This document shows, piece by piece, positions 4,977 to 52,585 of a stretch of DNA of 64,000 nucleotides. Below the pieces are notes generated by a model. That model was given only the letters and a program-made list of their open reading frames with translations, ran no database searches and was not told where the DNA came from. A program made the translations under genes and the position numbers. This DNA comes from a virus (Duplodnaviria > Caudoviricetes): the IMG/VR virus record IMGVR_UViG_3300005573_000075, positions 1 through 64,000 of that record. One strand, 5' to 3'. Numbering within the stretch: position 1 is the stretch's first letter; every line of letters starts with the position of its first letter.

Positions 4977-4997
4977 TAAAACAAATTTTAGCAAAAT

Positions 4998-10728: not shown

Positions 10729-11197
10729 AAAAGATTTTGAAAAATACATAACTGATCCGTTACCTGATGATTTATTTGTTTTTGGGTTTGATATTGATGA
10801 AAAAAATTGGGTAAGATATCGAGTGTCAGGAGTGCAATTCATTTCTAGCGCTAATTGTTACATTTTAAGCACTACATATTATAGATTGATTGCACCAAAA
10901 GATGCATATGTTCTAACGACAACATTGCCTATTATGTATTTATCTCAATTTGATAGGTACATGGCAAGGAAAGTAAAAATAAGAAATACTTATTTAGGAA
11001 TGCCTTTAATAGCTTATTTCCCCTCTGTGGATAAAGAAGGGGGTAAATTAATAAACGCGGTGACGTTTTTTATAGATTTTACTAAAGTTTTAGTGATGTC
11101 TTCTAATCCCTCTGATTTTGGAGTTATCTTGACATTAGATACTCCAAAACCAGATGCAAATTATGCATTAGACGGGGTTTTATTTTCAGCACAATAA
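10709..11197 (+). CDS. hypothetical protein (162 aa)
   Basis: Overlap-coupled on both sides. Confidence 0.65.
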   Translation: MITATSKKDFEKYITDPLPDDLFVFGFDIDEKNWVRYRVSGVQFISSANCYILSTTYYRLIAPKDAYVLTTTLPIMYLSQFDRYMARKVKIRNTYLGMPLIAYFPSVDKEGGKLINAVTFFIDFTKVLVMSSNPSDFGVILTLDTPKPDANYALDGVLFSAQ

Positions 11198-22459: not shown

Positions 22460-23488
22460 ATGGATTTTAATCAAGTATGGAGTTATAGTAAGTCTGAATC
22501 TTGCCCGAATGTAGTGGGTTACGCGAAAGAAAGAGGAGCTAGAGCGCTTTTAGAAATGGATAAATTTGTAAAAGAAGCTTCTACCCTTTCTGAAGTTCCT
22601 TCAATAGAACAGAAGGAAGCTGCATTTGAGCAGATATACAGAAATCCGGGTCAGAATTTTCAGAGGATGGCTTTCACACTGCAGACTCCTATCAAAGATA
22701 GGAATGACTATGTTGCGGTTGGAAGAAAACTTCTGTTGACTGACGAGTTGCCGGTTGGTGAAATACCTGCCTACGACTTGGATATCCCGGAATATCCGGC
22801 TGTAATTATAGGCGCTAGAGCTAATAGTCCTTTGGTTGAATCTAATATCCAGAGGGTCACGGTTCCTACTTTCTCGATATCTATCACTACGTCAGTATTG
22901 TATGAAGATATCACGACCAGAAGATATCCCGCTTTTGACCGTGCGAAAGAACGTGCGGCAATAGCTATGGCTATTGCGGAAGATAATCAGGTATTTACGA
23001 TACTTGATGAAGCTGCAAATGCCGGTATTAATGCGGTTTATCCTAAAGCTACTGGTGGAGTTGAAAGAGGGGAATTAGCGAAAGTGCAGGGATTAATGTT
23101 AGCTAATCAGCTAGCTCCTGGTGCATGGTTAATGAATCCTGTGAGATATGGCGACATACTCACTTGGAGTACTGCTGAATTGGATCAGGTTTCTTTGAAC
23201 GTTATAGTGGAAACTGGCCAGTTTGGTGTTATCCATGGAACGAGGTTAATAACCTCTACCAGAGTGAATCCTAGAAAAGCATATCTTTGCACCACGCCGG
23301 ATAAGCTTGGCAGAATTCCTGAGAGAAAATCTGTGGAAGTCAAAGTTGTCGATTGGCCGAAAGATACCAGATGGTATATCACCGCTTGGGAACAGTTAGG
23401 TTTTGCAATACTTAACACCGCCGGTGTTATAGCTATTGATTATCAGGATGCTAATTTGACACTGCCTTCTAGATTCCCACTCTCGTAA
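22460..23488 (+). CDS. major capsid protein (HK97 fold)
   Basis: 342 aa, high-expression codon bias; RKLLLTDELPVGEIPAYD, FDRAKERAAIAMAIAEDNQVF, WLMNP, WEQLGFAILN. Confidence 0.88.
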   Translation: MDFNQVWSYSKSESCPNVVGYAKERGARALLEMDKFVKEASTLSEVPSIEQKEAAFEQIYRNPGQNFQRMAFTLQTPIKDRNDYVAVGRKLLLTDELPVGEIPAYDLDIPEYPAVIIGARANSPLVESNIQRVTVPTFSISITTSVLYEDITTRRYPAFDRAKERAAIAMAIAEDNQVFTILDEAANAGINAVYPKATGGVERGELAKVQGLMLANQLAPGAWLMNPVRYGDILTWSTAELDQVSLNVIVETGQFGVIHGTRLITSTRVNPRKAYLCTTPDKLGRIPERKSVEVKVVDWPKDTRWYITAWEQLGFAILNTAGVIAIDYQDANLTLPSRFPLS

Positions 23489-23507: not shown

Positions 23508-23542
23508 AAATTGGGGAGGTAGTTAATACCTCCCCAATTTTT
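23508..23542 (+). terminator. intrinsic terminator after the capsid gene
   Basis: AAATTGGGGAGGTA-GTTAA-TACCTCCCCAATTT-TT. Confidence 0.85.
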
Positions 23543-23937: not shown

Positions 23938-24537
23938 ATGAAATATATTAATAAATCTGGCTTGAAAATATATAGTGAAACATACCAAAAAGTAATATTG
24001 CCAAATGAAGAAATAGAAATAAAAGAGGATAATTTAGGAGATTTAGCAGATGCAGTGCGCCAAAATTATTTAATTAAAGTTTTACAGAATCAATCACAAA
24101 CTAATCCACAATCTACTTCAGGGAAGAAAAAAATAAAAATGATAGTTAAACCATATACAAACCCTGGTAAGCAGACTCTAATTGAAGCGTATGAAAATAA
24201 AGGTGGGGTTAGAGATGCTTTATTTCATACAAGAGTTATTATAGGAAACAGGGAACCTATTTTAGATAATCCAAACGATGATCCTTCCATAAGTGAGGTA
24301 GAAGCAAAAAAATTGTTAAATTCCATAAAAAAAATGGAAGAAGGTTATATTGATGAAGAAGTATGGCGAATAAAAAATACTATGGAAAAGAGGGAATTTA
24401 TTGTAAATGCTAATCAAGAGCAATTAAATACAATAAAAAAATTTGAAGCTAGCCCTTTTTTATTAAATTTAATATATGGTAGGGAAGAACAATTGCGGTT
24501 AACTCAGGAGATAAAAAATGACGACGATAACAAATGA
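23938..24537 (+). CDS. hypothetical head-associated protein (start revised to 23938)
   Basis: GGAGGGG precedes ATG 23938. Confidence 0.65.
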   Translation: MKYINKSGLKIYSETYQKVILPNEEIEIKEDNLGDLADAVRQNYLIKVLQNQSQTNPQSTSGKKKIKMIVKPYTNPGKQTLIEAYENKGGVRDALFHTRVIIGNREPILDNPNDDPSISEVEAKKLLNSIKKMEEGYIDEEVWRIKNTMEKREFIVNANQEQLNTIKKFEASPFLLNLIYGREEQLRLTQEIKNDDDNK

Positions 24538-25015
24538 AAAACTAAGAATAAGGGTATATCATAGGACAGTGGAAGACATTATAATTTTATGGTCATTTAA
24601 ATATTTAGATGATGACCAAAAAAATAATATCCAAATATTTTTAAATGGTTCACCGGTGAAATGCGCTGTTACTTATAATGATAAAAGTAAAAAAGATATA
24701 GAAGATTCCACAGTTGTATGCGTGATTGATCATAAACTTAATAATATTTCCGCATATAAATCATATACATTTGATATTATATTAGGTGAAAAAAATGTAA
24801 TTAATATAAAACTTAATGTTTTAGAATACGGCAGTTTACCCGCATACGATAAAGATAATAAAAAATCCAGAGTACATTTGATGGGATATGATAATAAAGA
24901 AAAACAATGGGGACGAGTTAATACTATAAAAAAAGGTGAGATTAATACTTTCCCTGTGGTTATACTTAATGTAGACGAACTTGCAGATAAGATAGTCGAA
25001 AAATTGAAAAAATAA
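24518..25015 (+). CDS. hypothetical protein (165 aa)
   Basis: RBS AGGAG, overlap-coupled. Confidence 0.65.
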   Translation: MTTITNEKLRIRVYHRTVEDIIILWSFKYLDDDQKNNIQIFLNGSPVKCAVTYNDKSKKDIEDSTVVCVIDHKLNNISAYKSYTFDIILGEKNVINIKLNVLEYGSLPAYDKDNKKSRVHLMGYDNKEKQWGRVNTIKKGEINTFPVVILNVDELADKIVEKLKK

Positions 25016-25025
25016 TGTCCCAAAA

Positions 25026-26108
25026 ATGGTGATTAAAAATAAAAACAATGAATTAGCTAAGTTGGTTCAAGATTGGAAAAATCAGCATGAAATGTATTCT
25101 TATACATTAGAAGATTTTGTAGAGGAATACAAAGGGGATAATTTTTTTTTAACTTATAAAGTTGATGGTGAATTAACAGGGTTTCATTATAAAAATGGGA
25201 AGACTATTCTTTCTACTAAAAGTGGGATATTAAAAACTGATTTTATAATATCTAAAGAATTAGAAAAATTATTAGCTGATTATACAGAAGTTATAGGTAT
25301 AGGGGAATTATACGCTGTTGATGAAAACGGTAAAATGCTACCTTATACTAAATCAGCTTCTATTATAAGAAAACCTTCCCCTGAAACTGAGAATCAATTG
25401 CGATATTTAATTTTTGATATATTTTCTATTAATGGAAAAAAAATAAAAGATACCGTTGAAAATAAAGTTGATACAATAAATAATATTTTTAAAAATTCAA
25501 TCTATATCCAACCATTAAAATTTAAAGAATCAAATATAGACGATTTAGAAAAAGAATGGGAAAAGGTAGAACAAGGCACATATGAAGGTTTTGTAATTAT
25601 AGATAAGGATAATAATTATATTAAAATAAAGCCGATTCTTACATTTGATTTAGCGGTTATTTTTGTAGAAATAAGCAATACACATCCTGATATGATGGGT
25701 GCGCTGGGGTTAGCTTTTAAGGATAAAAACGATAACTTTTATTTTGCGGGGAAAGTGGGTACCGGATTTTCTCAAAAAGATAGAATACAATGGTTAAATA
25801 TTGCAAAAAAAGATAAAATAAAACAAGAAGATAGTATTATATGGATATATCCTTCTTATGTAGTAGAAGTGGAAAGTATGGGTATTAATTCAAGAGAAAC
25901 AGAAGTATATGATACAGGTTTGAATTTTATTAAAAAGGATATAGGATATATATTAAGGCAGCCAAGATTTAAACAAATTAGAGAAGATAAATCACCTTTA
26001 AATAAAGAAGATGTAAGAATTTCACAAGTACCAGGGTATAAATATAGTACATTAAAATCTACTTTAATTAAAAATTCTTTTTGGATAAAATATTCAAAAG
26101 AAAGATGA
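25026..26108 (+). CDS. ATP-dependent DNA ligase (LigD/LigC-like ligase plus OB domain)
   Basis: Motifs I TYKVDGE, III GELYA, IIIa YLIFDI, IV EGFVI, V IKIKP, OB-domain GKVGTGFS, VI LRQPRFKQIREDK. Confidence 0.95.
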   Translation: MVIKNKNNELAKLVQDWKNQHEMYSYTLEDFVEEYKGDNFFLTYKVDGELTGFHYKNGKTILSTKSGILKTDFIISKELEKLLADYTEVIGIGELYAVDENGKMLPYTKSASIIRKPSPETENQLRYLIFDIFSINGKKIKDTVENKVDTINNIFKNSIYIQPLKFKESNIDDLEKEWEKVEQGTYEGFVIIDKDNNYIKIKPILTFDLAVIFVEISNTHPDMMGALGLAFKDKNDNFYFAGKVGTGFSQKDRIQWLNIAKKDKIKQEDSIIWIYPSYVVEVESMGINSRETEVYDTGLNFIKKDIGYILRQPRFKQIREDKSPLNKEDVRISQVPGYKYSTLKSTLIKNSFWIKYSKER

Positions 26109-26235
26109 TTTTTAATAGATGAAAATACTGCTATTTTAATAAAGAATAAAGGTGTAAATATTCCTTATAATTATAAATTAAACTCCTTCTAAAACCCACG
26201 GTTTTAACCGTGGGATACAGAAGGGTAAAAAATAA

Positions 26236-26260
26236 ATGACAATGAAGGGTATATATAATA
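26236..26260 (+). promoter_or_regulatory. conserved phage promoter motif upstream of tnpB copy 2
   Basis: ATGACAATGAAGGGTATATATAATA; ATG 4 nt after TATAAT. Confidence 0.75.
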
Positions 26261-26263
26261 GAT

Positions 26264-27361
26264 ATGGTAAGATTAACCTATTATTGTAATTTAAAAGGTA
26301 ATAAAGAGAAACTAGCGTTTCTGGAACAGCAATATAAATATGCTCAAATAATAGCTAGGTATTACCTTTGGTATATCAAATCAACTAAAGAGTATAGGAA
26401 ATCAGAAATACATAAAGTTACATATGAAAAAATAAGAACTAAGTATCCATTTCTGTATTCTAAATTAATACAACATATAAGGAATAAAGTGTTAGCTTCA
26501 GTAAAAGCTAAAAAACTCTATAAAGTCAAAAAATTAAATATTCCTCTAATTTTTGATTATCAAAATTTTGATATAGGATTTAAAGAAGGTTACTATAATG
26601 CATGGATAAGATTGTGTAAAAATAATTATCCATTAGAAGGTTTAAGAACGATTAATAAGTTAAAAGAAGTAGTAAGTATAAAAGAGATTCAAATAAAAAA
26701 GATAAACAATGCATGGAGAATATACTTCATATGTGAGGTAAAAGAAAACAATAATGTTAAAGGAAATCAGAGGTTAGGTATAGATATCAACATAAAAAAT
26801 ATAACCCTTTCAAATAATAAAAGATTCAATCTAAAACAATATGTTCATAAAAAAATAGAATACAGAAAGCATAAACAAAAGGATAAAATAGTAAGATACT
26901 CTAAAGATTTCTTCCATAAGTTGACTTCTGAGTTGGTTAAGTATCTAATAGAAATGGGAGGTTCTCAAATTATATTAGAGAATCTAACTAATATTAGGAA
27001 GTCAAGTTCTAGAAAAGAAGGAACATCTAAAGGGAAAAATGTAAATTACTTAATCAATAATGTATTTCTGTATAAGATGTTTCAAGAGTTTCTAGAGTAT
27101 AAATGTAAGTTAAATGGGATAGAAGTTAAATATATCAATCCAAGGAATACTAGTAAGACTTGTGAATGTGGATCCATGGATACTAATAGACCTAAACAAA
27201 GTCTATTAATATGTAATACTTGTGGAAGAAGATTAAACGCAGATTTAAATGGAGCTAAAAACATCTTGAAGTTTTCACTTCAAGATGGGTCGCCGAGTCG
27301 TTCCGACCCGTCTGAACTCCTTAAACAAAACAGACAAGCCCTCGGCTTTAGCCGTGGGTAG
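26264..27361 (+). CDS. tnpB: TnpB RNA-guided nuclease, copy 2
   Basis: Nearly identical to 5506..6606; catalytic D/E/D and zinc ribbon intact. Confidence 0.95.
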   Translation: MVRLTYYCNLKGNKEKLAFLEQQYKYAQIIARYYLWYIKSTKEYRKSEIHKVTYEKIRTKYPFLYSKLIQHIRNKVLASVKAKKLYKVKKLNIPLIFDYQNFDIGFKEGYYNAWIRLCKNNYPLEGLRTINKLKEVVSIKEIQIKKINNAWRIYFICEVKENNNVKGNQRLGIDINIKNITLSNNKRFNLKQYVHKKIEYRKHKQKDKIVRYSKDFFHKLTSELVKYLIEMGGSQIILENLTNIRKSSSRKEGTSKGKNVNYLINNVFLYKMFQEFLEYKCKLNGIEVKYINPRNTSKTCECGSMDTNRPKQSLLICNTCGRRLNADLNGAKNILKFSLQDGSPSRSDPSELLKQNRQALGFSRG

Positions 27362-27385
27362 ATGACTTTAAGCATAAATCAATGT
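27235..27385 (+). ncRNA. predicted omegaRNA/reRNA plus flanking guide, copy 2 (5' boundary approximate)
   Basis: Stems GGGTCG/CGACCC, GTCTG/CAGAC and the right-end hairpin; covaries with copy 1. Confidence 0.6.
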
Positions 27386-29946
27386 GGGGGGATAATACAA
27401 AAGATGAAAATATGGAAGAAGAACCAGTAGAAAAGAAGTCCATGTGGGTAAAAGAATCGATTAAAACATTAAAACATCCAGGTACTGTAATAATATCTCC
27501 TAATGAATATTATACTAAAGGATTAACGGAGCAAGATATTTATGATTATTATGAAAGGGTAAAAGATAACTTATTAAAATTATATGAAGAATATAAATTG
27601 GATTGCCTTTTGAAAATAAAGATAGATAATACTTTAATAGTAAAAAGATTGAAAAACGAAGAATTATTAAAATCATGGAATGTTATAAATAATGGTAGAA
27701 CAGTAGAATTTCATATAGTATTACCAACTCAATATTCTCGTATTTATTGGATAGATTTAGATCCTAAAGAAAAGTTTCCTTTTGAAACTGTGTATGAAAT
27801 TGCTGAAAAAATTAAAAATTTATGTTTAAAAAATATATCAAATACTTCTGATGTTGTTATTAATTATACTGGGGGAAGAGGAATGTATGTTATAGGATTT
27901 TTAAATAAGGAACAAGATGTTAATAAGATAAAAAATACTTTAAAAGAATTAATAGAATCTAATATTATACCTGAATATCCTAAAACAACATTAGGATTTA
28001 CAAAAGAATCTGATAATATGCGTATAGATTTATCCACATTACATAAGTTAGGATCTATAAGATCTCCATATTCTTTAAATGCTACTACAGGATTAGTATC
28101 AAAAGAATTAAAAAGTTTAGATAAAGAAGATTATAATATTAATTTTTTTAAAAAGAGTTTCACATTCAATCTTTGGATTCTACAGGCTACATTATTACCT
28201 CAGATAATTGGGGAAATAAATACTTTAAATAAAGATCCTGAATATATAAATAGAATTATAGATACATTATATGTAATGTCTTCATTTATAAAAGGATTAG
28301 AAGGTAAAAGTAAAGAAGAAATAAAAAAGGTGTATACACAAGAATGGAAAGAAGAGATGAAATCACGTATAAATAATATAATATCAACAATTAATTCAGG
28401 AAGAATTCCTAATAGTAAAGATTGGGAATTAATATTTACTTATTCTGATAAATTTAAAGATAATATAAACATGCAATCATTATTAGAAAAAGTAATAAAA
28501 ATGAAGTATGCAATTGAAAGAGGAGATAGAGAACGAATAGATAAACCTGAATTTTTAACATTGATAGCTAAATTTTTAATAAGAAGACCATATGAAAAAA
28601 CAAATTTATCAAAAGAATTAATACAAAAAATACAAAATAAGATAGGAGAAAGCTCATCAGCATCATTAGATTATTTGTTATCTGTAGCTAAGGGATATAG
28701 ACCAGAATATCAAGAGTATAGAAAAGATTGGGTAACTGTTGTGTTAGAAAAGAATAAAAGAACTGGTAGGGATATAGATGAGGATGATTTAGAAGATACT
28801 ATATCTTTTATAAAATTATTAAATAGAAGTGGAGAAAAATTAACTGATGATGAAAAAAAAGCTATAGAACAGATATTTTTAAAATTTCCTTTGTATGCTA
28901 TTAAAGTAGCAGATGAATTAATAAATTTAGGGGTTAGTTTAGATAAGAATACATTAATAGAAGAAATAGCAAAAAATTCAGGAAATTCTTTTGAATATGC
29001 TAAATTATTAATAGAAAAAAGAAAAGATATAAAAGAAATACCTGAAATAATAATACAAGGAATAGCTCAAAATTCGATAAGTTCTTATGATTTTGCTAAA
29101 TTATTAATAGAAAAAGGAAAAGATATAAAAGAAATACCTGAAATTATACTACAAGGAATAGCACAAGATTCAGTATATTCTTATTATTTTGCTGAGTTCT
29201 TAATAGATCAAGGGAAAGATATAAAAGAAATACCTGAAATTATAATACAAGGAATAGCCCAAAGTTCAAGGAATTCTTATTATTTTGCTGACTTATTAAT
29301 AGATCAAGGGAAAGATATAAAAGAAATACCTGAAATTATACTACAAGGAGTAGCCCAAAGTTCGGATGATTCTTATTATTTTGCTAAATTCTTAATAGAA
29401 CAAGGAAAAGATGTTAAGGAAATTCATGAGGGTATAATACAAAGTATTTTAAGGGATAAAGAATATAAAGAAAAATATTTTGATTTATTACGACAATATA
29501 ATTTGCCATTACCAGAAGAATATGAAATAAAAAATGAAAATAGGGAAGAAGAACCAGTAGAAAAGAAGTCCATGTGGGTAAATTCAAATAAAAAACAATT
29601 GACAATAAGGGGGATATATAATAAGGGGTATAAGATTTATCCTTTATACTCCTTAGCTTTTGTGGCAAAAGAGGCGTATGATATAGCCAGGGAACATTTA
29701 AACAAAGATACAGTTAGCAAGTACATGGATATGGTAAAAAATATTGAAGATACTAAAGAAAGAAATGAAGCGGCTTTTAATCTTTGGATAACTACTGAAG
29801 GATATTTACCTTATGAGGAAACGATTTCAAAAATAAGAAATAAAATTGATACTTTTTCAAAATATGAGAGAATTACGGTATCTAGATTAATTGAAAAATT
29901 TAGAAATTTTTTGAAACAACAGTTTGTAAATATAGGAAAAGCGTAA
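27382..29946 (+). CDS. multidomain protein: LigD-type primase-polymerase (AEP) domain, helical region, 5 x 32-aa repeats
   Basis: GLTEQDIYDYY, RTVEFH, motif I YWIDLDP, motif II-like YTGGRGMYV (His replaced by Tyr), MRIDLS, RSPYSLNATTGLVS are LigD Pol-domain hallmarks. Confidence 0.85.
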   Translation: MWGDNTKDENMEEEPVEKKSMWVKESIKTLKHPGTVIISPNEYYTKGLTEQDIYDYYERVKDNLLKLYEEYKLDCLLKIKIDNTLIVKRLKNEELLKSWNVINNGRTVEFHIVLPTQYSRIYWIDLDPKEKFPFETVYEIAEKIKNLCLKNISNTSDVVINYTGGRGMYVIGFLNKEQDVNKIKNTLKELIESNIIPEYPKTTLGFTKESDNMRIDLSTLHKLGSIRSPYSLNATTGLVSKELKSLDKEDYNINFFKKSFTFNLWILQATLLPQIIGEINTLNKDPEYINRIIDTLYVMSSFIKGLEGKSKEEIKKVYTQEWKEEMKSRINNIISTINSGRIPNSKDWELIFTYSDKFKDNINMQSLLEKVIKMKYAIERGDRERIDKPEFLTLIAKFLIRRPYEKTNLSKELIQKIQNKIGESSSASLDYLLSVAKGYRPEYQEYRKDWVTVVLEKNKRTGRDIDEDDLEDTISFIKLLNRSGEKLTDDEKKAIEQIFLKFPLYAIKVADELINLGVSLDKNTLIEEIAKNSGNSFEYAKLLIEKRKDIKEIPEIIIQGIAQNSISSYDFAKLLIEKGKDIKEIPEIILQGIAQDSVYSYYFAEFLIDQGKDIKEIPEIIIQGIAQSSRNSYYFADLLIDQGKDIKEIPEIILQGVAQSSDDSYYFAKFLIEQGKDVKEIHEGIIQSILRDKEYKEKYFDLLRQYNLPLPEEYEIKNENREEEPVEKKSMWVNSNKKQLTIRGIYNKGYKIYPLYSLAFVAKEAYDIAREHLNKDTVSKYMDMVKNIEDTKERNEAAFNLWITTEGYLPYEETISKIRNKIDTFSKYERITVSRLIEKFRNFLKQQFVNIGKA
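27414..27452 (+). repeat. 39-bp perfect direct repeat (second copy 29544-29582)
   Basis: GGAAGAAGAACCAGTAGAAAAGAAGTCCATGTGGGTAAA at both sites, 2130 bp apart, encoding EEEPVEKKSMWV. Confidence 0.95.
28975..29454 (+). repeat. 5 x 96-bp coding repeats (32 aa)
   Basis: Consensus xSxxSYxFAxxLIxxGKDIKEIPEIIxQGIAQ. Confidence 0.95.
29599..29623 (+). promoter_or_regulatory. conserved phage promoter motif, internal to ORF 27382..29946
   Basis: TTGACAATAAGGGGGATATATAATA. Confidence 0.7.
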
Positions 29947-30711
29947 ATGCCAATAGAACAAAATATTTTTTTGTTTCCAGTAATAAAATGGGTAATGCCA
30001 CAAGGATTAGATTTATCTGTTTATGATAAAATAAATATTTATTATTCTTCTAATGAAGGGCAGAATTATACTTTATTAACTACAATTGATTCAAAAGATG
30101 GTAATAATACTCCTGTAACTTCATATACTGACCAATTTCATTCTATTACCATGAAAGATAATTTATTTTATGTGGTATCGTATTATAGCACTTCTTTGGA
30201 TACTTCAACTGATTACATATTAACGTATAAAGAATTAACTCCAAGAGAAAGGAAGTTGACTTTTAATTTGGCCAATATCCTTTCCTCTTTCATTAGCAAC
30301 ACTTTAACAGATGAAGAATTAAGGCAGTATTTAGAGCAAGGGTTAAAAGCGTATAATATAATACCTCCAGCCACAGATTTTACCCTATTCTCATTACCAG
30401 CTTCTTTAGAGCCGGTAATTTTGCTAGGAGGGGCTGTATTTGGGGCATATACAAATATGCTTAAAATATCGTTTGGAGATGTATCAATTAATGATAATGG
30501 GATATCATTAACATTAAATAGAGGAGAAAAGATAAATCAATTGATAGATAAAATTAATACTAAGTATAAAGAGATTATTGAAGTGTCTAAATTAGATTAT
30601 GCGTATACTGGAGCAGGTGTAGGCTCGGTACCATTACCTATAGGTATAGGTAATAACTTAGGAAGATCAATAATGAATGTTTTTGATTTGATAGGCGCAT
30701 TAGGTAGATAA
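29947..30711 (+). CDS. head-tail adaptor / neck protein candidate
   Basis: LTDEELRQYL..SINDNGISLTLNR resembles myovirus head-completion proteins; position supports. Confidence 0.55.
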   Translation: MPIEQNIFLFPVIKWVMPQGLDLSVYDKINIYYSSNEGQNYTLLTTIDSKDGNNTPVTSYTDQFHSITMKDNLFYVVSYYSTSLDTSTDYILTYKELTPRERKLTFNLANILSSFISNTLTDEELRQYLEQGLKAYNIIPPATDFTLFSLPASLEPVILLGGAVFGAYTNMLKISFGDVSINDNGISLTLNRGEKINQLIDKINTKYKEIIEVSKLDYAYTGAGVGSVPLPIGIGNNLGRSIMNVFDLIGALGR

Positions 30712-30713
30712 TA

Positions 30714-31133
30714 ATGGCAAAGATATCCACAAATACGGAGCAAGTTCCCATAGATAATTTAGTGGTTACATTTGACGAAGGTTTGTATGACCATTATTTA
30801 AGCTATGCCGGAATGCCTCCAAGGCATTATATAACTTACATCAACGAAATCAAGGCAGGATTTTCCACTAAATATCAACTTCATAGATTATTGAAGTTTT
30901 TAAAAGAGATATTTCCAACAGGAATAATACCTGCAAAAGCGTTACAATATCAGCCAATACCTACTGTTTCCGAACCTATAATTAGAAGATTAGGTAAAAT
31001 TCAAGTAGTTGAAAAGAAATTTGATAAAGTACAAAGGAATTCTTTAAGAGAAATTGATTGGGAATACATGACCGGTGGAATAGATACTAATGCAGTTATA
31101 AACGGGCGGAATGTTGAAGGCCCTAGAGTTTAA
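30714..31133 (+). CDS. hypothetical protein (139 aa)
   Basis: Co-oriented and tightly packed. Confidence 0.65.
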   Translation: MAKISTNTEQVPIDNLVVTFDEGLYDHYLSYAGMPPRHYITYINEIKAGFSTKYQLHRLLKFLKEIFPTGIIPAKALQYQPIPTVSEPIIRRLGKIQVVEKKFDKVQRNSLREIDWEYMTGGIDTNAVINGRNVEGPRV

Positions 31134-31145
31134 AGGAGGAATAAA

Positions 31146-32582
31146 ATGGAAATAATATTTGATAGAAAAGCTTTTTTAGGCTATAAAGAAAAAATAAATA
31201 AAGAGAAGTATATATCAAAAGGAGTTACTGAAAAGCTTGATAATGTGCAGAAGGATTATTCTATAAAAGAAAGTCTTCCTGTAGATAAAATAGGAGAAGA
31301 AAACATCACAAAAGGAGAAAAAGGAGAATTAAAATTTCCCAAAGCCAATACCGATGAAATGTTTCATTCCGCTAGCAGAGGGGAAGATAAAGTTAAAGAA
31401 TATGTTTCAGCTATGGTGGATAAATTAGTTAAAGAAGGTTATTCAAAAGAACAAGCTATGGAAAAAGCGCTTTCAGAAGTTAAAGCTAGAGGATATGATA
31501 TACCTGAGAAAAAAGCTGCAAAATTAACAGATGAAGCCCAAGAATTTATATCCAACAAAATTAAACTTTTAATAGAAGAGGGATATGATCAGGAGCAGGC
31601 GGCAGCTATTGCTTACAGTCAAGCCAGAGAAAAAGGATATGATGTCCCAGAGAAAAAGGAGGCAGGTGTTAAGATGGCTAAAATAGATAATATTCAAGAA
31701 GGTGAAAAAGGGAAATTGGATTTTCCTACCTCGCAGGATAAACATGACCCTAGTGTTAAACAACCTTATCTTAAGACAGATAAGCCTACAATATCAAAAG
31801 GTCCAGAGGAGAAAATAAATATTGAAAAATCTCAAGCTTCATTTCCTTCTGCTGAATTGAAGGTCTCTACAGAGAGTGGTAATGAATTTAAAGAAGAAGG
31901 GGATAAAGGGGCATTTAAAAAGATAAATCCTGAACCGGGAGTATCTGCCGATAAACTTAAAGATGCAGATAAACCGTTCTCAGATTATGAACAGGTCCCA
32001 AAAATGATGAAGCAATTTAATATAAAGTTTTATAAAAAGCAAGATCCTTATATGTATAAAGAGGCTATGGTAGGCGCAATAGATTCTTCTATAAAGAATA
32101 TGGAAACGATAGCTTTGGCCTTAGGGAAAAATATATTTGATACCCCAATAGCCCCTATATATGCAGGATTGATACTTGCAAGAGATGTTAATACCCTTAT
32201 AGTTACTGCTGCAGATAGCAAAAAAACTATATTTACATTGTTAAAAGAATTAAAAGATAAATATATGACTGAGAAGGGGTTTGATAAAGAGAAGTTTAAA
32301 GGTGAATTTAAAGGGGCATTGAAAGGATTAACGGATAAATTTGCTGATTGGATGGAACAGTATGATTTTAAAGAAGAATCAGGTTCCAAAAAAGAACCAG
32401 GTGAAAAAGGGGAATCTAAAGGCCCTTTTGGAGCTGGTGATGAGAAGAAAGAGAAGGGCGGATTTCCTTTTGGCAAAGGTAAAGAAAAAGGTGAATTTCC
32501 ATTTGGCAAAGAGAAAGGTTCAGAAGAAGAACCAGAAGATAAAAATATTTTGGAAAAGATTAGTAGATTCCTTTTTTCTTAA
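31146..32582 (+). CDS. charged internal-head/scaffold-like protein with a duplicated EGYxxEQAxxxAxSxxxxxGYDxPEKK module
   Basis: RBS AAGGAGG; internal repeat and FPFG repeats visible in the translation. Confidence 0.65.
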   Translation: MEIIFDRKAFLGYKEKINKEKYISKGVTEKLDNVQKDYSIKESLPVDKIGEENITKGEKGELKFPKANTDEMFHSASRGEDKVKEYVSAMVDKLVKEGYSKEQAMEKALSEVKARGYDIPEKKAAKLTDEAQEFISNKIKLLIEEGYDQEQAAAIAYSQAREKGYDVPEKKEAGVKMAKIDNIQEGEKGKLDFPTSQDKHDPSVKQPYLKTDKPTISKGPEEKINIEKSQASFPSAELKVSTESGNEFKEEGDKGAFKKINPEPGVSADKLKDADKPFSDYEQVPKMMKQFNIKFYKKQDPYMYKEAMVGAIDSSIKNMETIALALGKNIFDTPIAPIYAGLILARDVNTLIVTAADSKKTIFTLLKELKDKYMTEKGFDKEKFKGEFKGALKGLTDKFADWMEQYDFKEESGSKKEPGEKGESKGPFGAGDEKKEKGGFPFGKGKEKGEFPFGKEKGSEEEPEDKNILEKISRFLFS

Positions 32583-32587
32583 TTAAT

Positions 32588-32619
32588 TTCCCCCCGCCCC
32601 GGATAACCGGGGCGGGGAA
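32588..32619 (+). terminator. very stable GC hairpin without a U tract (terminator or mRNA-stabilising stem)
   Basis: CCCCGCCCCGG-ATAA-CCGGGGCGGGG. Confidence 0.55.
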
Positions 32620-32630
32620 GAGGGTTCCAA

Positions 32631-34070
32631 ATGTTTTTAAAAGAAAGTCAAAATATATCAGATTTATATGACCTTTTTTTAACTAAGCGTACTGAGTTTG
32701 CACAGTTATTAGGTGTAGATGAAGGTTTAATTACAATTCCTAATATGAATGCTGAAGTTGTACTGCAAAAATTTAAAGGAAATACCCAATTAAATAATAT
32801 AAAAAAAGTATTAGATGCCACAAAATCTGCGATAGAAAAACAATTCGGGATACGTCCTGAATCTGTGAGCATAGAAACAATATTATTGGGAATGTTAAAT
32901 GAGAAATTCAAAATAGGGGCTAGGAGTCTGGAAGAAATAACCAATTTACAAGACGTGGTATCTCTTTTATTAGAAGATACAGGGTTTATAAATAATTATT
33001 TAACTCAGATGCAGAATATTTTGAAAAAAGAAGATATGGTATTTCAAGTAATAGATGGGATTGAAAAGGAATTTAATATCACAATAGATATAAAAGAGGT
33101 AGCTAGTTGGTTTAATACGGCCCCTGTAGGAATAAGTTATTTAAAAATGTCTCCTGAAAAATTATATGGCACGATTATTTCTATCCCGGGGATATGGGCA
33201 AGAATAAATAAAATTATAGCTACTTCTTTTATAAAAATAATATCTACAGAATTATCTGAGCAAGGGATAGATGTAACTATAAAAATATTGGATATTACTC
33301 CAAAAAATATACGTCATTTTTTTAATAGTATACAGAAAATAAAGGATATAATATCTTTAGTAAATAATGGGGAAATAGATATATCATTGGAAGTTAATTT
33401 AGTACCTTTAGAAGGGTGGCCAACAACTATTACAACTTTTGAAGATTTTGTTAATTTTTATAATAACATAAAAGAATATAAAAAAGATTTAAAAGAAGTT
33501 CAAACAAAAAAAAGGGAAGAGCAGGAAAAAGTAATAAAAGAGAAGGAGAAGGCAGAAAAAGGGGAAGAACTAAAAAAACAAAAAGAAAAAGAAGAGAAAG
33601 AAAAGGCAGAAAAATTTAAAGAAGAAGAAAAAGAAAAGAAAGAAAAAGAACAATTTACAACATTTGAAAGTGAATTTATAAATAGTAGCTATTCTCTAAT
33701 TAAAAATATAACTAGTAGTGGTTCAATTTATGATTTAATAGATAAGATAAAACCTTATACAGAGAAGAGTGATACATTATTTAAGTTATTTACTATTTTA
33801 CAAAGTATAAGCGATAATATTACTTCTTTGAATACAATAGAATCTGCAATATCAAAAGCTAAAAAAGAAGTTTTACAATATCATAGGCAATATTACTTAG
33901 AAAAAATGAACGATATAAAAAAAGAAGTAGAAGACAATTTGGCAGGATTAGAATTATTTTTTGAGCAGTTAGGTAAACCATTAGATAAAGAGTATAATCT
34001 GAAAAATATAATCTATTCAGATATAGATAATTTGCAGAAAAAGATAGAAGGATTAGGAGGGGGTCAATGA
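32631..34070 (+). CDS. hypothetical coiled-coil protein (479 aa)
   Basis: Long ORF with an E/K-rich coiled coil. Confidence 0.7.
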   Translation: MFLKESQNISDLYDLFLTKRTEFAQLLGVDEGLITIPNMNAEVVLQKFKGNTQLNNIKKVLDATKSAIEKQFGIRPESVSIETILLGMLNEKFKIGARSLEEITNLQDVVSLLLEDTGFINNYLTQMQNILKKEDMVFQVIDGIEKEFNITIDIKEVASWFNTAPVGISYLKMSPEKLYGTIISIPGIWARINKIIATSFIKIISTELSEQGIDVTIKILDITPKNIRHFFNSIQKIKDIISLVNNGEIDISLEVNLVPLEGWPTTITTFEDFVNFYNNIKEYKKDLKEVQTKKREEQEKVIKEKEKAEKGEELKKQKEKEEKEKAEKFKEEEKEKKEKEQFTTFESEFINSSYSLIKNITSSGSIYDLIDKIKPYTEKSDTLFKLFTILQSISDNITSLNTIESAISKAKKEVLQYHRQYYLEKMNDIKKEVEDNLAGLELFFEQLGKPLDKEYNLKNIIYSDIDNLQKKIEGLGGGQ

Positions 34071-35734
34071 ATTTAAAATTTTTGTTTAAAAAAATAAGCG
34101 AATACCTAGACAAAAATTTAAATAGAGAAGAAACTGTCGACCCTCACGAGTTAGAAATGGGTATTAAAGAAGAAATGGAACATACCGATGATCCAGAAAT
34201 AGCTAAGGAAATAGCATTAGACCATTTAGAAGAGCATCCTAATTATTATACAAAATTAAAAGAAGTTTTCTCTACTTTAAATAAGAAAGCACAGGCGTAT
34301 CAAATTACTGTGAATGACAAAATTTACGATATAGATATTACTCAAGAAGTTGATACTACTAATGAAAACTCTGTTATAAAATATTACATTACGTTTAAAG
34401 AGTATCCTGATATGTCTTTTGAAATTGAAAATGCAGAAGAAATTCCTGAGCCGGAATTGAAAGATATAATTGTGGATTATATAGTTAATTTTAAAGATTT
34501 AGCAATAAAAAGTTATATAGAAGATCAAATTCCGGTAGACCAATCTGATTTCAATTATAAAGATAAGAGAACAGATACTGAGGATTATTATGACAAATTA
34601 GGCCAATCTTTAGATAAACCAAAACCGGATGGTGAAAGTAGCATGCCTGTAAGAGAAAAAAATAAATATCCTTATCCTTCCACAGGGTGGTACTCAGACA
34701 TGAGAGGTTCTTCAGAACCACCTTCCGATTATAGCGATAGCAATTATTCAAAAGCTAAGGAAGGAGATTTACGGCCAGATTGGGCTACAGAAAGCAAATT
34801 TTCTTGGATAGATAAAGATGAGTTATTTAAGTTTATGAAATTATGCAAACTGTTTAAGATTAACAGAGAATTGACAAGAAATGCAACTATATATAAATAT
34901 CTTCCTTTTTTTGTAAAGAATAGTGCATACTACAGGTTATTGGATGCTTATTTAAATATTTTATTTGAGCCAGTGGATAATATTATTAATATTAATAATA
35001 GTAATAAAAGTATTATTAATTTAGTTGATGCCTTATATGCTAAGGGATATAATAAATCTACAATTAAAAAAGAAGCATATAAAGAATTTGAAAAGGAGAT
35101 TTATTCTGATAATAATATAAAAAAAGAAATTAAACAATATATAAAGTTTAAATTTTCTCCTAGATTACTAATAGCGTCGGATATGCGCCCGTATTTAAAA
35201 GTAAAGCATATAAAAAATCCTTTAAAAGAAGGGGTTATATTAAATGTTATAGAGGATACCCCTAGCGAGGCCAGGATATATGTATATTGGTTATCAGACG
35301 ATTCATTAGATTTTGTTAATGAAAATGATTTAATAATTACAGGAGAACCTACTTTTGAAGAGATGAAGAAAGTTAATGAAAAGGAGCAGCAAAAAGTTAG
35401 TATGCTTACAATACAAAAGAATCCTTTTAATTGGTATTTAAGCTCTTTCTTGCAAACTTTTAGGGAATTACCTGTAAAATATGCTGAATTTAGAGAATGG
35501 GCGAAGGATATAAAAGATTATACTTTATTCGATAGTTTAGAAACTTTTTTGATAGGTACTAATTTAGTTAATATTACGCCAGGGTTGACAAAATTAAATG
35601 CTAAAAAAGTGGTGTATGTTTCTTCTGATAATGCAACTAAAGTTATTGAATTAGGGGAGGGCGAAGAACCTCCTGAGAAAATAACAGATGATGCAGGAAA
35701 AGAGTATTCTAAAATCGGAGAAAAGAATGAATGA
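34067..35734 (+). CDS. multidomain protein with an N-terminal DUF5661-like module
   Basis: VDPHELEMGIKEEMEHTDDPEIAKEIALDHLEEHPNYYTKLKE. Confidence 0.75.
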   Translation: MNLKFLFKKISEYLDKNLNREETVDPHELEMGIKEEMEHTDDPEIAKEIALDHLEEHPNYYTKLKEVFSTLNKKAQAYQITVNDKIYDIDITQEVDTTNENSVIKYYITFKEYPDMSFEIENAEEIPEPELKDIIVDYIVNFKDLAIKSYIEDQIPVDQSDFNYKDKRTDTEDYYDKLGQSLDKPKPDGESSMPVREKNKYPYPSTGWYSDMRGSSEPPSDYSDSNYSKAKEGDLRPDWATESKFSWIDKDELFKFMKLCKLFKINRELTRNATIYKYLPFFVKNSAYYRLLDAYLNILFEPVDNIININNSNKSIINLVDALYAKGYNKSTIKKEAYKEFEKEIYSDNNIKKEIKQYIKFKFSPRLLIASDMRPYLKVKHIKNPLKEGVILNVIEDTPSEARIYVYWLSDDSLDFVNENDLIITGEPTFEEMKKVNEKEQQKVSMLTIQKNPFNWYLSSFLQTFRELPVKYAEFREWAKDIKDYTLFDSLETFLIGTNLVNITPGLTKLNAKKVVYVSSDNATKVIELGEGEEPPEKITDDAGKEYSKIGEKNE

Positions 35735-37031
35735 TGCAGAAAAAATAATAGCTATTGATTTTGATAATGTTATTGCCAAAGAGGAAGAAAATGGTAAAAT
35801 AGGCGAAGAAATTCCTTATGCCTGTGAAACTATTAAAAAATTAACTGAAGAAGGGTGGAAAATATATATTCATTCACACCGCGCTGCAGATCCTAAAGAA
35901 AAAATGAATATGGAAGTTTGGTTAAATTCAAGGGGATTAAATATTCCTATTATGGAGAAACCATTTGCCAGATTTTATATTGATGATAGAGCTATAGAGT
36001 TTAATGATTGGAATAAAGTATATGATAGATTAAAAAATGATATTCCTGTATCTGTAATAAAAACTCCGATAACTACTATTTTACCTGGCATTGAAGAGCA
36101 TATTAAAATGTTGGATACTCCATATTTAAATGAATCAGATTATATAGCAATAATTAATAGATTAAAAAATTTATATGGGATAAATGTAACTTATGAGGAA
36201 TTTGAAAAATATAATTCCCAATATCTTTGGGATTCAAAGATATTGAGATTAGCTAATAAATTATCAGCTAATTATATTCAAGAAGGGGATAGCGTTTTAA
36301 TATTGCATGGTAAATATTTAGGGGAATTAGGCACAGTGTATAGCATAAAAGATAGCGAAGCAGAGATTATATGCGATAGCAATAATAAATTTTTGAGATT
36401 TGAAGATTATATGAATAAGCTTAAATATTTCCCATATATATTTAAAAAAGCCTGCAAAGGCCCTTCTAAACTAGTTAATAAATATTATCCGAATGGATTA
36501 TCTATAGAAAAGATATCTAAATATTATAAAGATAATTTTCCCATGATATATTCTTATTTTGAAGATCCTAAAATTATCGGAGTTTTTGATGTGTATGGTT
36601 CTTTATATCGTATGGCAATAGAAGATATTAATGATATAAATATGGATAGATTAAGAGGGGTATACAATATAATACCAAATAATAGATGCTATCAACCATT
36701 GAGAATTAGGAGGGGGCCTAGATTTTTTGGAGAGTTTAAAAATTCATTAGCAGATTTGATATGCGCATTATCTCCATATGTAATAGATTTTAAGTTAAGT
36801 ATAGAGGGGGATAAAGGGGTTATATTATATTTACTATTTGATAAACAAGTTAATGAAGAACTATTATCGAATTTAAAAGAAGTATTGAAAGATTTTAAAC
36901 ATATGGATATAGACGATAATATTAAAGTGGTTCCAGCTATAGATTCGATAGATGTTAATACGGGATTAATTAATAAAAAAGTGTCACTGGAAGACTATAA
37001 TTACCCTATTGCGACAATTGAAGGGGAATAA
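35727..37031 (+). CDS. HAD-family phosphatase plus KOW/SH3-like motif plus degenerate LigD-Pol-like domain (start revised to 35727)
   Basis: IIAIDFDNVI, IHSHR, KPFARFYIDDRA (HAD motifs); C-terminus aligns by eye with the Pol domain of 27382..29946. Confidence 0.78.
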   Translation: MNDAEKIIAIDFDNVIAKEEENGKIGEEIPYACETIKKLTEEGWKIYIHSHRAADPKEKMNMEVWLNSRGLNIPIMEKPFARFYIDDRAIEFNDWNKVYDRLKNDIPVSVIKTPITTILPGIEEHIKMLDTPYLNESDYIAIINRLKNLYGINVTYEEFEKYNSQYLWDSKILRLANKLSANYIQEGDSVLILHGKYLGELGTVYSIKDSEAEIICDSNNKFLRFEDYMNKLKYFPYIFKKACKGPSKLVNKYYPNGLSIEKISKYYKDNFPMIYSYFEDPKIIGVFDVYGSLYRMAIEDINDINMDRLRGVYNIIPNNRCYQPLRIRRGPRFFGEFKNSLADLICALSPYVIDFKLSIEGDKGVILYLLFDKQVNEELLSNLKEVLKDFKHMDIDDNIKVVPAIDSIDVNTGLINKKVSLEDYNYPIATIEGE

Positions 37032-37456
37032 TGGAATTAGAGGAATATAAAGAAAAACGAGATTGGACCAAAACTCCTGAACCAAAGGGAGATGGATCTA
37101 AAGTCTCTAAATTAGTTATCCAGCAACATGAAGCCAAAAGGGCGGGGAACCATTACGATTGGAGAATCCCGTATAAAGGGGTATTAAAGTCTTTTGTAAC
37201 TAAAAAATTACCTAAAAAGGGAGAAAAGATATTAGCAATTCCTACAGAGGATCATCCATTAGCTTATGCCTCCTTCGAGGGGGAAATACCTGAGGGTACA
37301 TATGGAGCGGGGAAAGTGACTAAAAAAGGAGAGTATTCTTTTAAACTTAATGAATTCTCCTCCTCCAAAATTTCATTTGAAATTTTGGAGGAGGATATGG
37401 AAGGAAAATATACTTTAATAAAATTTAAAAATGGATTTTTAATGCACAGGGGTTAA
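37031..37456 (+). CDS. LigD-type 3'-phosphoesterase, stand-alone
   Basis: LEEYKEKRDWTKTPEP, VIQQHEAKRAGNHYDWRI, LAIPTEDHPLAYASFEGEIPEGTYGAGKV. Confidence 0.95.
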   Translation: MELEEYKEKRDWTKTPEPKGDGSKVSKLVIQQHEAKRAGNHYDWRIPYKGVLKSFVTKKLPKKGEKILAIPTEDHPLAYASFEGEIPEGTYGAGKVTKKGEYSFKLNEFSSSKISFEILEEDMEGKYTLIKFKNGFLMHRG

Positions 37457-39589: not shown

Positions 39590-40630
39590 ATGGGATACAC
39601 GATACGACCAAATCCGTATGGGCAACCTCTAAACGCAGACGAGGAATTCAAATATATCCGTTCTTTGTTTCCTACTGCGGAGTGGGTACCTTCTTTGGTC
39701 AAAATAGAAGTGGTACCAGGAAAAATTAATACTTTTTTAATTTCTTGGAATTCTGTGCCTTCTGCGGTCTCTTACAAAATTCATGTTGGATTCTGCCCTA
39801 TTTTATCTCAGGCAGTAGATCACATTGAAATCACAACTACATCAGTGGAGTATACCCGAGCTGCAGTATTGCCAAATGATGCTTTCCCATATGTTTGGGT
39901 AGAATGGGTAGATTCTAATGGCAGTTCTAGTTTGATAAATCAAGATCCTGCTTCATTAGATACCGCGTATAATACTTTCGATGTAAATTATAGCCCTTTG
40001 GAACAGGGATATGCTAATTTAACTATAGATAACAATTATATACGATTTATTCTTCAGGAGATTAGAAGAAGAGAAGTAACTATGCTCCAAAACGATGGTG
40101 AACCTTTCATATTGTATACTCACCGTTGGGAAGGGAAGAAGTGTAAATGTATCCAAGATTATAGCAAAACCTCTTTAGATGGCGATGATTACTATGGTTT
40201 TAATACAGAAGATCCTGATAAAGGGGTTAAAATAACCCCAGTGGATACTAATGCTAATCCAACGTACGAGGGGTATTCACAATGCAATCTATGTTTTGGA
40301 ACTGGAATAGCAGGTGGATATTATCATGGGATCCCTTTAATCGCTAGATATGGCAATTTACCGACTAGAGTTAGATTGTTTGGGGCGGTAGGTATAGAAT
40401 TCCAAACTTCATTCAATACTTGGACCCTATGGAGTCCAAGATGGCATGAACATGATGTTTTGTATAGACCAGCAACAGGGGAATATTTTGAGGTAACAGA
40501 CCCAAAATATGGGACTTGGCGCGCAGTACCATTGCATCAAGAAGCTACGTCTAAAGCTATTCCAAGAAAAGATGTAAGATATTTGCTGACAGATAGTAAT
40601 ATTGATATAGGGGTTTCAGCTAATGGTTAA
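39590..40630 (+). CDS. neck / head-closure protein with an N-terminal Fn3-like segment
   Basis: ISWNSVPSAVSYKIHV; CKC..CNLCFGTGIAGGY; NTWTLWSP..HDVL..EYFEV; upstream of the sheath. Confidence 0.6.
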   Translation: MGYTIRPNPYGQPLNADEEFKYIRSLFPTAEWVPSLVKIEVVPGKINTFLISWNSVPSAVSYKIHVGFCPILSQAVDHIEITTTSVEYTRAAVLPNDAFPYVWVEWVDSNGSSSLINQDPASLDTAYNTFDVNYSPLEQGYANLTIDNNYIRFILQEIRRREVTMLQNDGEPFILYTHRWEGKKCKCIQDYSKTSLDGDDYYGFNTEDPDKGVKITPVDTNANPTYEGYSQCNLCFGTGIAGGYYHGIPLIARYGNLPTRVRLFGAVGIEFQTSFNTWTLWSPRWHEHDVLYRPATGEYFEVTDPKYGTWRAVPLHQEATSKAIPRKDVRYLLTDSNIDIGVSANG

Positions 40631-41216
40631 TAAGTATATCATTCATGGTTCAAATTATATTAAAAAGGTAACCGTCGCTGCATTGCGTCAAATATACGCA
40701 ATGCAGGAAGAGTTCCCTATATACAAATACAACGACGATACTTCTGCGACTAACATATTGATATATGGCTACTATCCCCCAACAGCCATGGCGTTACCGT
40801 TGCTGGTGGTGAGGAGTCAGAGTTCTACATATCATAGAGCAATTAGTGATATTCAGGGTGGATTTGACGAGAAAATAGATATAGTAGATGGTGAGGCGGT
40901 TACAAAAAAGTATGCGTTTGGGTTCATTGAAAGTACATTATACATAGATATTAATACTTTCACTGATGAGGATCGTAATGCTTTAACTGATTTAACTGCT
41001 TTTTATATTAGATACATATTCCCAGATGTTTTATTTAAATATGGAATAGGATTTAATAGTGCAAGCATTACCGGTGAAACTGAAAAAGATTGGTCCGGTA
41101 AGAGAATTTTTGCTAATAGTGTACAAATGAAGGTGTACACAGAAGTTCAATACAATAGAATAGATCCGTTAATTTATATCGAAAAATTGAATTTGACATT
41201 GCAAAGTTATATTTAA
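40623..41216 (+). CDS. tail completion / terminator protein candidate
   Basis: Size and position immediately before the sheath. Confidence 0.55.
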   Translation: MVNKYIIHGSNYIKKVTVAALRQIYAMQEEFPIYKYNDDTSATNILIYGYYPPTAMALPLLVVRSQSSTYHRAISDIQGGFDEKIDIVDGEAVTKKYAFGFIESTLYIDINTFTDEDRNALTDLTAFYIRYIFPDVLFKYGIGFNSASITGETEKDWSGKRIFANSVQMKVYTEVQYNRIDPLIYIEKLNLTLQSYI

Positions 41217-41228
41217 AGGAGGAAAAAG

Positions 41229-52584: not shown

Positions 52585-52585
52585 G

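Follow-up and report, generated by a model that had tools for sequence, protein, structure and literature searches.

Why would a bacteriophage keep the three activities of the bacterial end-joining protein LigD among the genes that build its head? The question is raised by an 89,780-bp virus record from IMG/VR (IMGVR_UViG_3300005573_000075; Duplodnaviria, Caudoviricetes), which is classed as linear, has a CheckV completeness estimate of 100% and a GC content of about 30%, and of which bases 1–64000 form the stretch discussed here as the window. Within it, genes for an ATP-dependent DNA ligase (Lig, 25026–26108), a LigD-type archaeo-eukaryotic primase (AEP) polymerase (Pol, its catalytic domain at the start of 27382–29946), and a 3′-phosphoesterase (PE, 37031–37456) lie on the + strand between the major capsid gene (22460–23488) and the neck and tail sheath genes (sheath, 41229–42440), accompanied by a haloacid dehalogenase (HAD)-type phosphatase (35688–37031). 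A first-pass annotation of the window had proposed this arrangement, and each enzyme sits where it had been placed, with Pfam matches above the cut-offs for all the profiles that the annotation suggested searching (LigD_N, LigD_Prim-Pol, and DNA_ligase_A_M). The catalytic motifs of these enzymes are intact, their genes are repeatedly linked or fused in relatives, the location is a virion module, and the DNA-end-binding partner Ku is absent. The locus is best explained as an accessory set of Ku-independent enzymes for repairing DNA ends and gaps, one that a clade of uncultured myoviruses conserves and carries within its virion-morphogenesis operon. What such a cassette would do, and where, is a matter of more graded confidence, and the interpretation offered by the annotation is supported in part.

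The ligase (25026–26108, + strand) is a 360-residue enzyme of minimal form, consisting of a nucleotidyltransferase and an oligonucleotide-binding (OB) domain. It matches DNA_ligase_A_M at 48.5 bits and DNA_ligase_A_C at 48.1 bits, both above the curated cut-offs, and its translation shows motifs I (KVDG) through VI (RQPRFKQIREDK). Its best solved relatives are archaeal (2cfm, E = 7e-15, alignment over residues 28–334), and all 25 of its PDB matches at E ≤ 1e-3 were deposited as DNA ligase or DNA ligase 1, with none labelled LigD. A match to the RNA_ligase profile is weak, at 23.7 bits against a cut-off of 27.

The polymerase is carried by an 854-residue protein (27382–29946, + strand) that comprises the AEP domain, a helical region, five tandem repeats of 32 residues each, and, at the C-terminus, a module of ~125 residues. 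The AEP domain (residues 27–263; 27460–28170) is matched by the Pfam profile LigD_Prim-Pol over residues 103–237 at 34.7 bits (cut-off 27.4), and an exhaustive HMMER search with it recovered 322 relatives, of which 33 reach E ≤ 1e-30. Because a phmmer search against PDB sequences returned nothing, comparison with solved proteins had to rest on fold. An AlphaFold (AF2) model built from an alignment of 20 relatives (pLDDT 91) matched the polymerase domain (PolDom) of Mycobacterium tuberculosis LigD best (2r9l and 3pky, E = 4e-12, TM 0.73), and the top 15 PDB structures were all LigD PolDoms (that of Pseudomonas LigD included), the Methanocella non-homologous end joining (NHEJ) polymerase, or Prim-PolC, at E values from 4e-12 to 1e-8 and TMq of about 0.7; Methanocella 5dmu ranked fifth, and Prim-PolC 6sa0 scored E = 5e-10. 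CAPP and human PrimPol ranked far lower (E ≥ 3e-7, TMq < 0.5), as did primases. Judged by its modeled fold, then, the domain belongs with the repair AEPs rather than with replicative PrimPols or primases.

The acidic triad expected of an active AEP is also in place. Asp125 and Asp127 form the DxD of motif I, and Asp216 marks motif III; the DxD and the motif III aspartate are kept in 142–146 of the 150 best relatives. The first-pass annotation had flagged as a caveat that motif II holds a tyrosine where a histidine is expected, and Tyr169 does stand at the histidine position of SGxGxH. As a sign of damage, however, the observation does not hold up: in relatives the motif reads S-G-x-R-G-F-[H/Y], with histidine in 95 of 150 and tyrosine in 52 of 150 and the rest of the motif conserved. 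Because roughly a third of the best relatives share it, the tyrosine is, on this alignment, a recurrent variant of the clade and not a lesion.

The stand-alone phosphoesterase (141 residues, 37031–37456, + strand), which starts within the stop codon of the HAD gene, scores 76 bits against LigD_N (cut-off 31.1; E = 3e-21). Over its full length it aligns with its two best matches among solved PE proteins, 3p43 (E = 7e-28) and 3p4h (E = 4e-22), short chains of stand-alone size that are presumably archaeal, and it also matches the Pseudomonas LigD PE structures 2lj6 and 3n9b. Chance could not account for similarity of this order. His33, His41, Asp43, Arg45, His75, and Tyr79 align with the solved domains 3p43 and 3p4h; we take these six residues to have the active-site roles of their counterparts in Pseudomonas LigD PE.

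The HAD protein itself (447 residues, 35688–37031, + strand) proved to be more than the phosphatase that had been annotated. The HAD domain (residues ~15–117; 35730–36038) is confirmed by phrog_1238 (E = 4.6e-19) and PDB 2obb (E = 5.8e-8), with no match in Pfam, and its motifs can be read as Asp24-x-Asp26, Ser63, Lys91, and Asp99-Asp100, of which Asp24, Ser63, and Lys91 are invariant in a three-sequence alignment. Beyond a middle region, residues 261–446 (36468–37025) align with the Pol-domain profile in hhalign at 99.8% probability (E = 2e-27) and constitute a second, inactivated AEP domain. In place of the DxD it has L-R-I-R-R, and the DxD is also lost in two orthologues, that of the related contig L004 and P0089. 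A non-catalytic role is therefore likely for this dead AEP; it may be a module that binds DNA ends or 5′-phosphates and steers the phosphatase to its substrate. A word-based homologue search with the HAD protein returned only the protein itself, and an AF2 model of its 447 residues from the three-sequence alignment was set aside for fold searching at pLDDT 54.

That the three activities belong together is indicated by their relatives, which we examined with this phage's own proteins as queries on 146 relatives of the Pol domain. PE is fused to Pol in 60 of these, Lig in 24, both in nine, and the HAD domain in six, and every domain order occurs; among the 53 best relatives, Pfam recognizes LigD_N in 27 and ligase domains in 17–20. 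Lig, Pol, and PE share a single protein in P0009, P0013, P0006, P0016, P0021, and P0062. Several fused relatives are giants of 1.7–2.7 thousand residues, some of which add SLT lysin, Acb1/2H, CCA-adding, or mCpol/GGDEF domains. An alignment of 20 Pol sequences proved too divergent to scan for related loci, a scan with a four-sequence alignment found four viral loci only, and a tblastn search of 50,697 GenBank phage records with Lig, Pol, and PE, which may omit very near records, gave no match.

The setting of the kit recurs as well: in seven relative contigs it lies inside the morphogenesis module. The closest of these, L004, has a capsid protein 62% identical to that of this phage and keeps the same order, namely capsid, p121, p165, Lig-Pol, p254, p139, a p478-like gene, a DUF5661 protein, a HAD protein with dead AEP, and PE. 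(The capsid gene of L004 is interrupted at 225–1884 by an open reading frame (ORF) for a LAGLIDADG endonuclease, and the last ~28 capsid residues resume ~800 nt downstream, probably reflecting a group I intron or intein.) L005/L012 (capsid 50% identical, 110 kb) place the 1992-residue P0009, a Lig-mCpol/Cas10-palm/GGDEF-Pol-PE protein, between the head genes and p346, p197, and the sheath gene. Five other contigs have the kit beside portal, protease, neck, or sheath genes, or fused to an SLT lysin; among them, a Pol-PE-Lig arrangement lies upstream of portal and protease in L011, a Pol-Lig-PE-KTSC arrangement lies between portal and protease in L021, and Lig and Pol-PE immediately precede a neck gene and the sheath gene in L022.

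The first-pass annotation had described the kit as split, with each activity on a gene of its own. There are indeed three separate ORFs, but the separation of Lig from Pol seems only partly native. Between the two genes lies a TnpB-only element of the IS200/IS605 type, ~1.2 kb long (about 26171–27366, + strand; tnpB at 26264–27361, with a Cas12f1-like_TNB match at E = 1.6e-20). P0003, the closest relative of both Lig and Pol, is a single Lig-Pol protein of 699 residues that is 39–40% identical to the ligase over its ligase half and 42% identical to Pol, with a linker of 12 residues. Because the insertion sequence (IS) lies between the genes, P0003 is a single protein, and 24 of the 146 relatives have Lig fused to Pol, the split is probably secondary and due to the IS. 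We do not claim that removal of the element restores the frame; with two of four plausible boundaries the ORFs do come into one frame, yet the TGA of the ligase would persist, and such an agreement is readily expected by chance. Three copies of the element, 90–95% identical, occur in the genome (5362–6606 and ~26171–27366 in the window, and 87344–88596 in the full record), and no TnpA was seen with them. There are also two ~45-nt relics of its left end, at 509–552 and at genome position 83455–83505, and every full copy has a promoter-like motif of the phage's own just 5′ of tnpB.

The kit also appears to be embedded in the virion transcription unit. The virion genes form one long + strand block, and the kit genes share the strand of the head and tail genes; from PE through the sheath gene, the starts and stops of consecutive genes overlap or abut. 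Directly 3′ of the capsid gene is a strong hairpin with a 14-bp stem (23508–23540, + strand) that resembles a terminator or attenuator, and besides it no convincing + strand terminator was found up to 41.5 kb. A 23-nt phage promoter-like motif of the form TGACAAT-A/G-rich-TATATAAT occurs within the Pol ORF as TGACAATAAGGGGGATATATAAT (29600–29622, + strand) and also at 5479, 8255, 18821, 26237, and 59313; the copies at 8255, 18821, and 59313 precede structural genes, and the others lie in both IS copies of the window and in the Pol ORF. A generic sigma-70 promoter scan was uninformative, with a site count no higher than in shuffled sequence. These features fit co-transcription of the kit with the virion genes.

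Taken together, these features suggest a Ku-independent end- and gap-repair cassette that is made with the head proteins, is at least partly borne in the particle, and acts on the incoming genome, a reading that we hold to be about evenly poised between right and wrong. In such a scheme, Lig, Pol, the HAD-AEP protein, and PE would be made together with the head proteins, and would at least in part be loaded into the capsid or otherwise associated with the virion, so as to be carried into the next cell along with the DNA. In that cell, PE and the HAD phosphatase would clear blocked 3′ ends, Pol, a presumably active AEP of LigD/Prim-PolC type on a scaffold of helical repeats, would fill or bridge short gaps or overhangs, and the ligase would seal. 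The outcome would be an incoming genome whose nuclease damage is repaired, or whose ends are joined, before the phage expresses a gene of its own. When the proteins are made, whether they are packaged, what they act on, and in which order are all inferred here.

Pointers to delivery with the DNA come from the company that the kit keeps in its giant relatives. P0035 (2659 residues) unites 2H, Lig, Pol, an SLT lytic transglycosylase, and a CCA-adding enzyme in one protein, and P0028 (1721 residues) is a Lig-Pol-PE-Acb1/2H protein. A trypsin-like protease gene lies directly upstream of both P0035 and P0037. In the contigs L009 and L010, the trypsin-like serine protease genes at 462–1139 and 9061–9681, respectively, overlap or directly abut the start of the 2.6-thousand-residue Lig-Pol polyvalent proteins and are candidates for enzymes dedicated to processing polyproteins. 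We read SLT domains and adjacent processing proteases as hallmarks of virion-delivered proteins, a reading in line with the survey of polyvalent proteins from phages and conjugative elements (Iyer et al., 2017; PMC5512222).

The architecture of the Pol protein may bear on the same issue. A 59-nt direct repeat, in frame, has its first copy at the N-terminus (27394–27452, + strand, encoding EEEPVEKKSMWV) and its second, 95% identical, at the border of the last module of ~125 residues (29526–29582, + strand); it could be a signal for a module border or cleavage, or a recombination joint. (The promoter-like motif within the ORF begins 17 nt after the second copy.) Strings resembling KKS-[FMSW] precede the internal Pol domains of some fused relatives, where K-[KR]-[SA] is enriched 3.4-fold (p = 3e-4), yet in only 10 of 79 proteins, and in three related capsid proteins a [KR]-x-A-S string can be seen by eye ahead of the conserved core. 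Such strings would fit a protease site at module borders and are suggestive. The region between the repeat copies includes five tandem 96-nt (32-residue) repeats of alpha-solenoid-like character (28859–29466, + strand). These are shared with P0002, the sole match of the Pol protein in a word-based homologue search and one confined to the repeat region, and a single-protein search of IMG/VR for loci related to the Pol protein found none. In the ESM Atlas, the C-terminal 590 residues have only weak helical-repeat look-alikes (PPR-like, TM ≤ 0.36), with no function indicated.

The first-pass annotation noted no Ku in the window, and this negative extends to the whole 89,780-bp record: the Ku profile PF02735 has no match at E ≤ 1 in six frames, either there or in four viral records with related Pol domains. 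Profiles for Phage_Mu_Gam and lambda Gam likewise have no match in the genome. The absence of Ku covers these viral records, and a host-supplied Ku may be usable. A scan of GTDB genomes for relatives of the TnpB element, made for host inference, found none.

Several observations weigh against a particle-borne end-joining kit and should be set beside the evidence for it. Ku-less end joining is inefficient in the bacterial LigD enzymes that have been studied, and the true activity may instead be repair of nicks or gaps. The ligase is, by sequence, outside the LigD clade. The phage is uncultured, and its packaging and timing are read only indirectly; a signal for capsid targeting or cleavage is not established by the strings described above. 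The IS between Lig and Pol, together with a Pol start that has no obvious ribosome-binding site, could mean that the kit is partly decaying in this genome. Finally, the first-pass annotation held that its reading would be refuted by relatives that carry the genes unlinked and sporadically. This is not so for close relatives, given the shared order of L004 and the fusion in L005/L012, but it is so further out: in three more distant phage records Pol lies 34–49 kb from the PE or ligase gene, and two IMG/VR relatives with capsid proteins 43–44% identical (L007/L008) have neither Pol nor PE in 61–73 kb, their p165 and p254 homologues standing ~1.3 kb apart with no Lig or Pol between. Because it is absent from L007/L008 and unlinked in the three distant records, the cassette is, on present comparisons, accessory, which speaks against a fixed core role; yet it is repeatedly linked or fused and placed in morphogenesis modules.

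A second possibility, to which we assign a minority but serious share of belief, is that the kit is expressed late but stays inside the cell, healing nicks, gaps, and broken ends of replicated DNA so that concatemers can be packaged, and is not loaded into capsids. The late-operon location fits this equally well, and the genome has other proteins for DNA processing: RuvC, a RuvB-like ATPase, a UvsW-like helicase, and a PD-(D/E)XK nuclease. Among the structural neighbors of the Pol domain is Prim-PolC, which repairs gaps independently of Ku. A purely intracellular role leaves unexplained why giant proteins served by a dedicated protease fuse the kit to SLT lysin, Acb1/2H, and CCA-adding domains, and why the kit is repeatedly placed between portal and protease genes.

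Repair of RNA, for example of tRNAs cut by host anticodon nucleases, seems improbable. LigD Pol and PE act on ribonucleotide ends, in relatives of the kit Lig and Pol are joined with CCA-adding enzymes and 2H phosphoesterases, and the ligase does have its weak, sub-cut-off match to RNA_ligase. Nevertheless, the OB domain of the ligase is of the DNA-ligase kind and contains motif VI, and among solved proteins the enzyme is closest to DNA ligases; the folds closest to Pol bind DNA breaks or gaps; and no tRNA genes were found in the window, nor any kinase module in Pfam scans of the larger ORFs.

Slightly less probable again is a replicative role, in which the AEP would be the primase-polymerase of the phage, the ligase would seal Okazaki fragments, and PE would trim RNA primers, the position of this replication machinery amid structural genes being incidental. 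Searches of the 89.8-kb record turned up no DNA polymerase of family A or B, and there is no primase among the Pfam-scanned ORFs, though no search was aimed at primases; the phage presumably depends on its host for replication, or else the record lacks sequence in spite of its 100% estimate. The predicted fold of Pol, however, is closest to NHEJ and gap-repair AEPs rather than replicative PrimPols or primases, no helicase or PriCT-type partner domain is attached to it, and its partners are instead PE, ligase, and counter-defence domains in a conserved morphogenesis-module location. Least credible of all is that these are unrelated morons at permissive sites, without joint function and decaying here; the IS that interrupts the Lig-Pol pair and the absence of the cassette from some relatives would fit, but the same three to four domains are fused in every order across 146 relatives, the gene order of L004 is the same, and all catalytic residues are intact.

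The remaining genes of the virion block, all on the + strand, are given here for orientation. Upstream of the kit lie genes for the terminase large subunit (11197–12936), the portal (16571–18814), the prohead protease (19206–20468), and the major capsid protein (22460–23488; phrog_2522, E = 3e-30), the last 32% identical to the major head protein of Bacillus phage G. Two conserved core genes adjoin the Lig-Pol pair, p165 (24518–25015) and the virion-type p254 (29947–30711), both with homologues in L004, L005, L007, and L008. The Atlas neighbors of p254 are viral, with adaptor and head-completion matches ranking lower, which offers a lead only as to its function. Four genes without assigned function follow (30714–35734): p139, p478 (DUF6496), p479 (coiled coil), and p555 (DUF5661), of which p139, p478, and p555 have counterparts in L004; DUF5661 proteins adjoin the kit in L004, L010, L011, and L021. 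Downstream, the module is bounded by the neck-region genes p346 and p197, kept beside the sheath gene in relatives, and the tail sheath gene itself (together 39590–42440; sheath, 41229–42440), and a baseplate J-like protein is encoded at 52571–54070.

Elsewhere the genome also encodes a macro domain, a GroEL-like protein, and methyltransferases, in addition to the DNA-processing proteins named above. A − strand cluster near the start of the record consists of a papain-like peptidase, a macro-domain protein, and a divergent GroEL-like protein (1930–2676, 2842–3375, and 3618–4994), and a 121-nt tandem duplication (2686–2806 and 2801–2921, 99% identical) lies just upstream of the region of the macro-domain gene and overlaps it. 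Relative to the portals of L007/L008, that of this phage carries an insertion of ~160 residues (about residues 146–309), with weak, sub-threshold Hint/intein matches; it is probably a mini-intein or its remnant, and the portals of L011 and L021 carry clear inteins. At 62697–63902 of the window, a thymidylate kinase is fused to an InPase-type pyrophosphatase domain, and the survey of polyvalent proteins counts InPase as one of their domains in phages (PMC5512222).

Literature searches found no published description of a phage kit of this sort. More speculatively, and with a confidence that falls somewhat below the even balance assigned to the reading for this phage, the cassette may represent a widespread, undescribed phage cargo: Ku-independent LigD-like enzymes (ligase, AEP polymerase, PE, and a HAD phosphatase with the dead AEP as a clamp), encoded separately or as protease-processed polyproteins, that are loaded into capsids, injected, and used to heal, seal, or circularize DNA before gene expression, as a counter-defence against restriction, CRISPR, and other nucleases. 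If delivered with the DNA, the kit would add repair of the incoming genome to the functions that phages package in virions—RNA polymerases, anti-restriction proteins, and lysins—and would constitute a new route around nuclease-based immunity. Independent of delivery, the locus offers a natural Ku-less set of Lig, Pol, and PE, including a clade with the motif II histidine replaced by tyrosine and a dead AEP fused to a phosphatase, and these could serve as compact end-joining reagents.

How, then, does the kit relate to the systems already known? The canonical reference is LigD with Ku (POL-PE-LIG in M. tuberculosis, PE-LIG-POL in Pseudomonas aeruginosa), which has the same three activities and whose mycobacterial PolDom is the best superposition of the Pol model; the phage kit differs in having no Ku, separate genes, a ligase from outside the LigD clade, a tyrosine in motif II, an additional HAD-dead-AEP protein, and a virion-module setting. 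The NHEJ system of Methanocella paludicola, with separate genes for Ku, Lig, Pol, and PE, likewise has the enzymes as stand-alone proteins, but it is chromosomal and includes Ku, whereas the phage kit lacks Ku and stands in a viral morphogenesis setting. Mycobacterial Prim-PolC works with LigC as a Ku-independent pairing of an AEP and an ATP-dependent ligase in short-gap or excision repair, and resembles the phage kit both in that pairing and in AEP fold; it has no PE or HAD partner, however, and is a cellular housekeeping system.

Among phages, the mycobacteriophages Corndog and Omega reportedly encode Ku and use host LigD for circularization (Pitcher et al., 2006). These, too, are phages that exploit NHEJ components, with the roles reversed: here the enzymes are encoded without Ku. 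The Pnkp and Rnl enzymes of phage T4 follow the same heal-and-seal logic, in which an end-healing phosphoesterase or phosphatase is paired with a ligase against host nucleases, and the phosphatase of T4 Pnkp is likewise HAD-type; the T4 pair differs in acting on tRNA, early and in the cytoplasm, and in having no AEP polymerase. In architecture there is a resemblance to the polyvalent proteins, which the fused relatives of the kit match as multi-enzyme proteins of 1.7–2.7 thousand residues with lysin and 2H/Acb1 domains, an adjacent protease, and a late-gene neighborhood. The founding survey (Iyer et al., 2017; PMC5512222) lists none of the LigD-type domains Lig, Pol, and PE, and the relatives described here would extend the polyvalent-protein concept to them, while in this phage the same activities are laid out on separate genes within the virion module.

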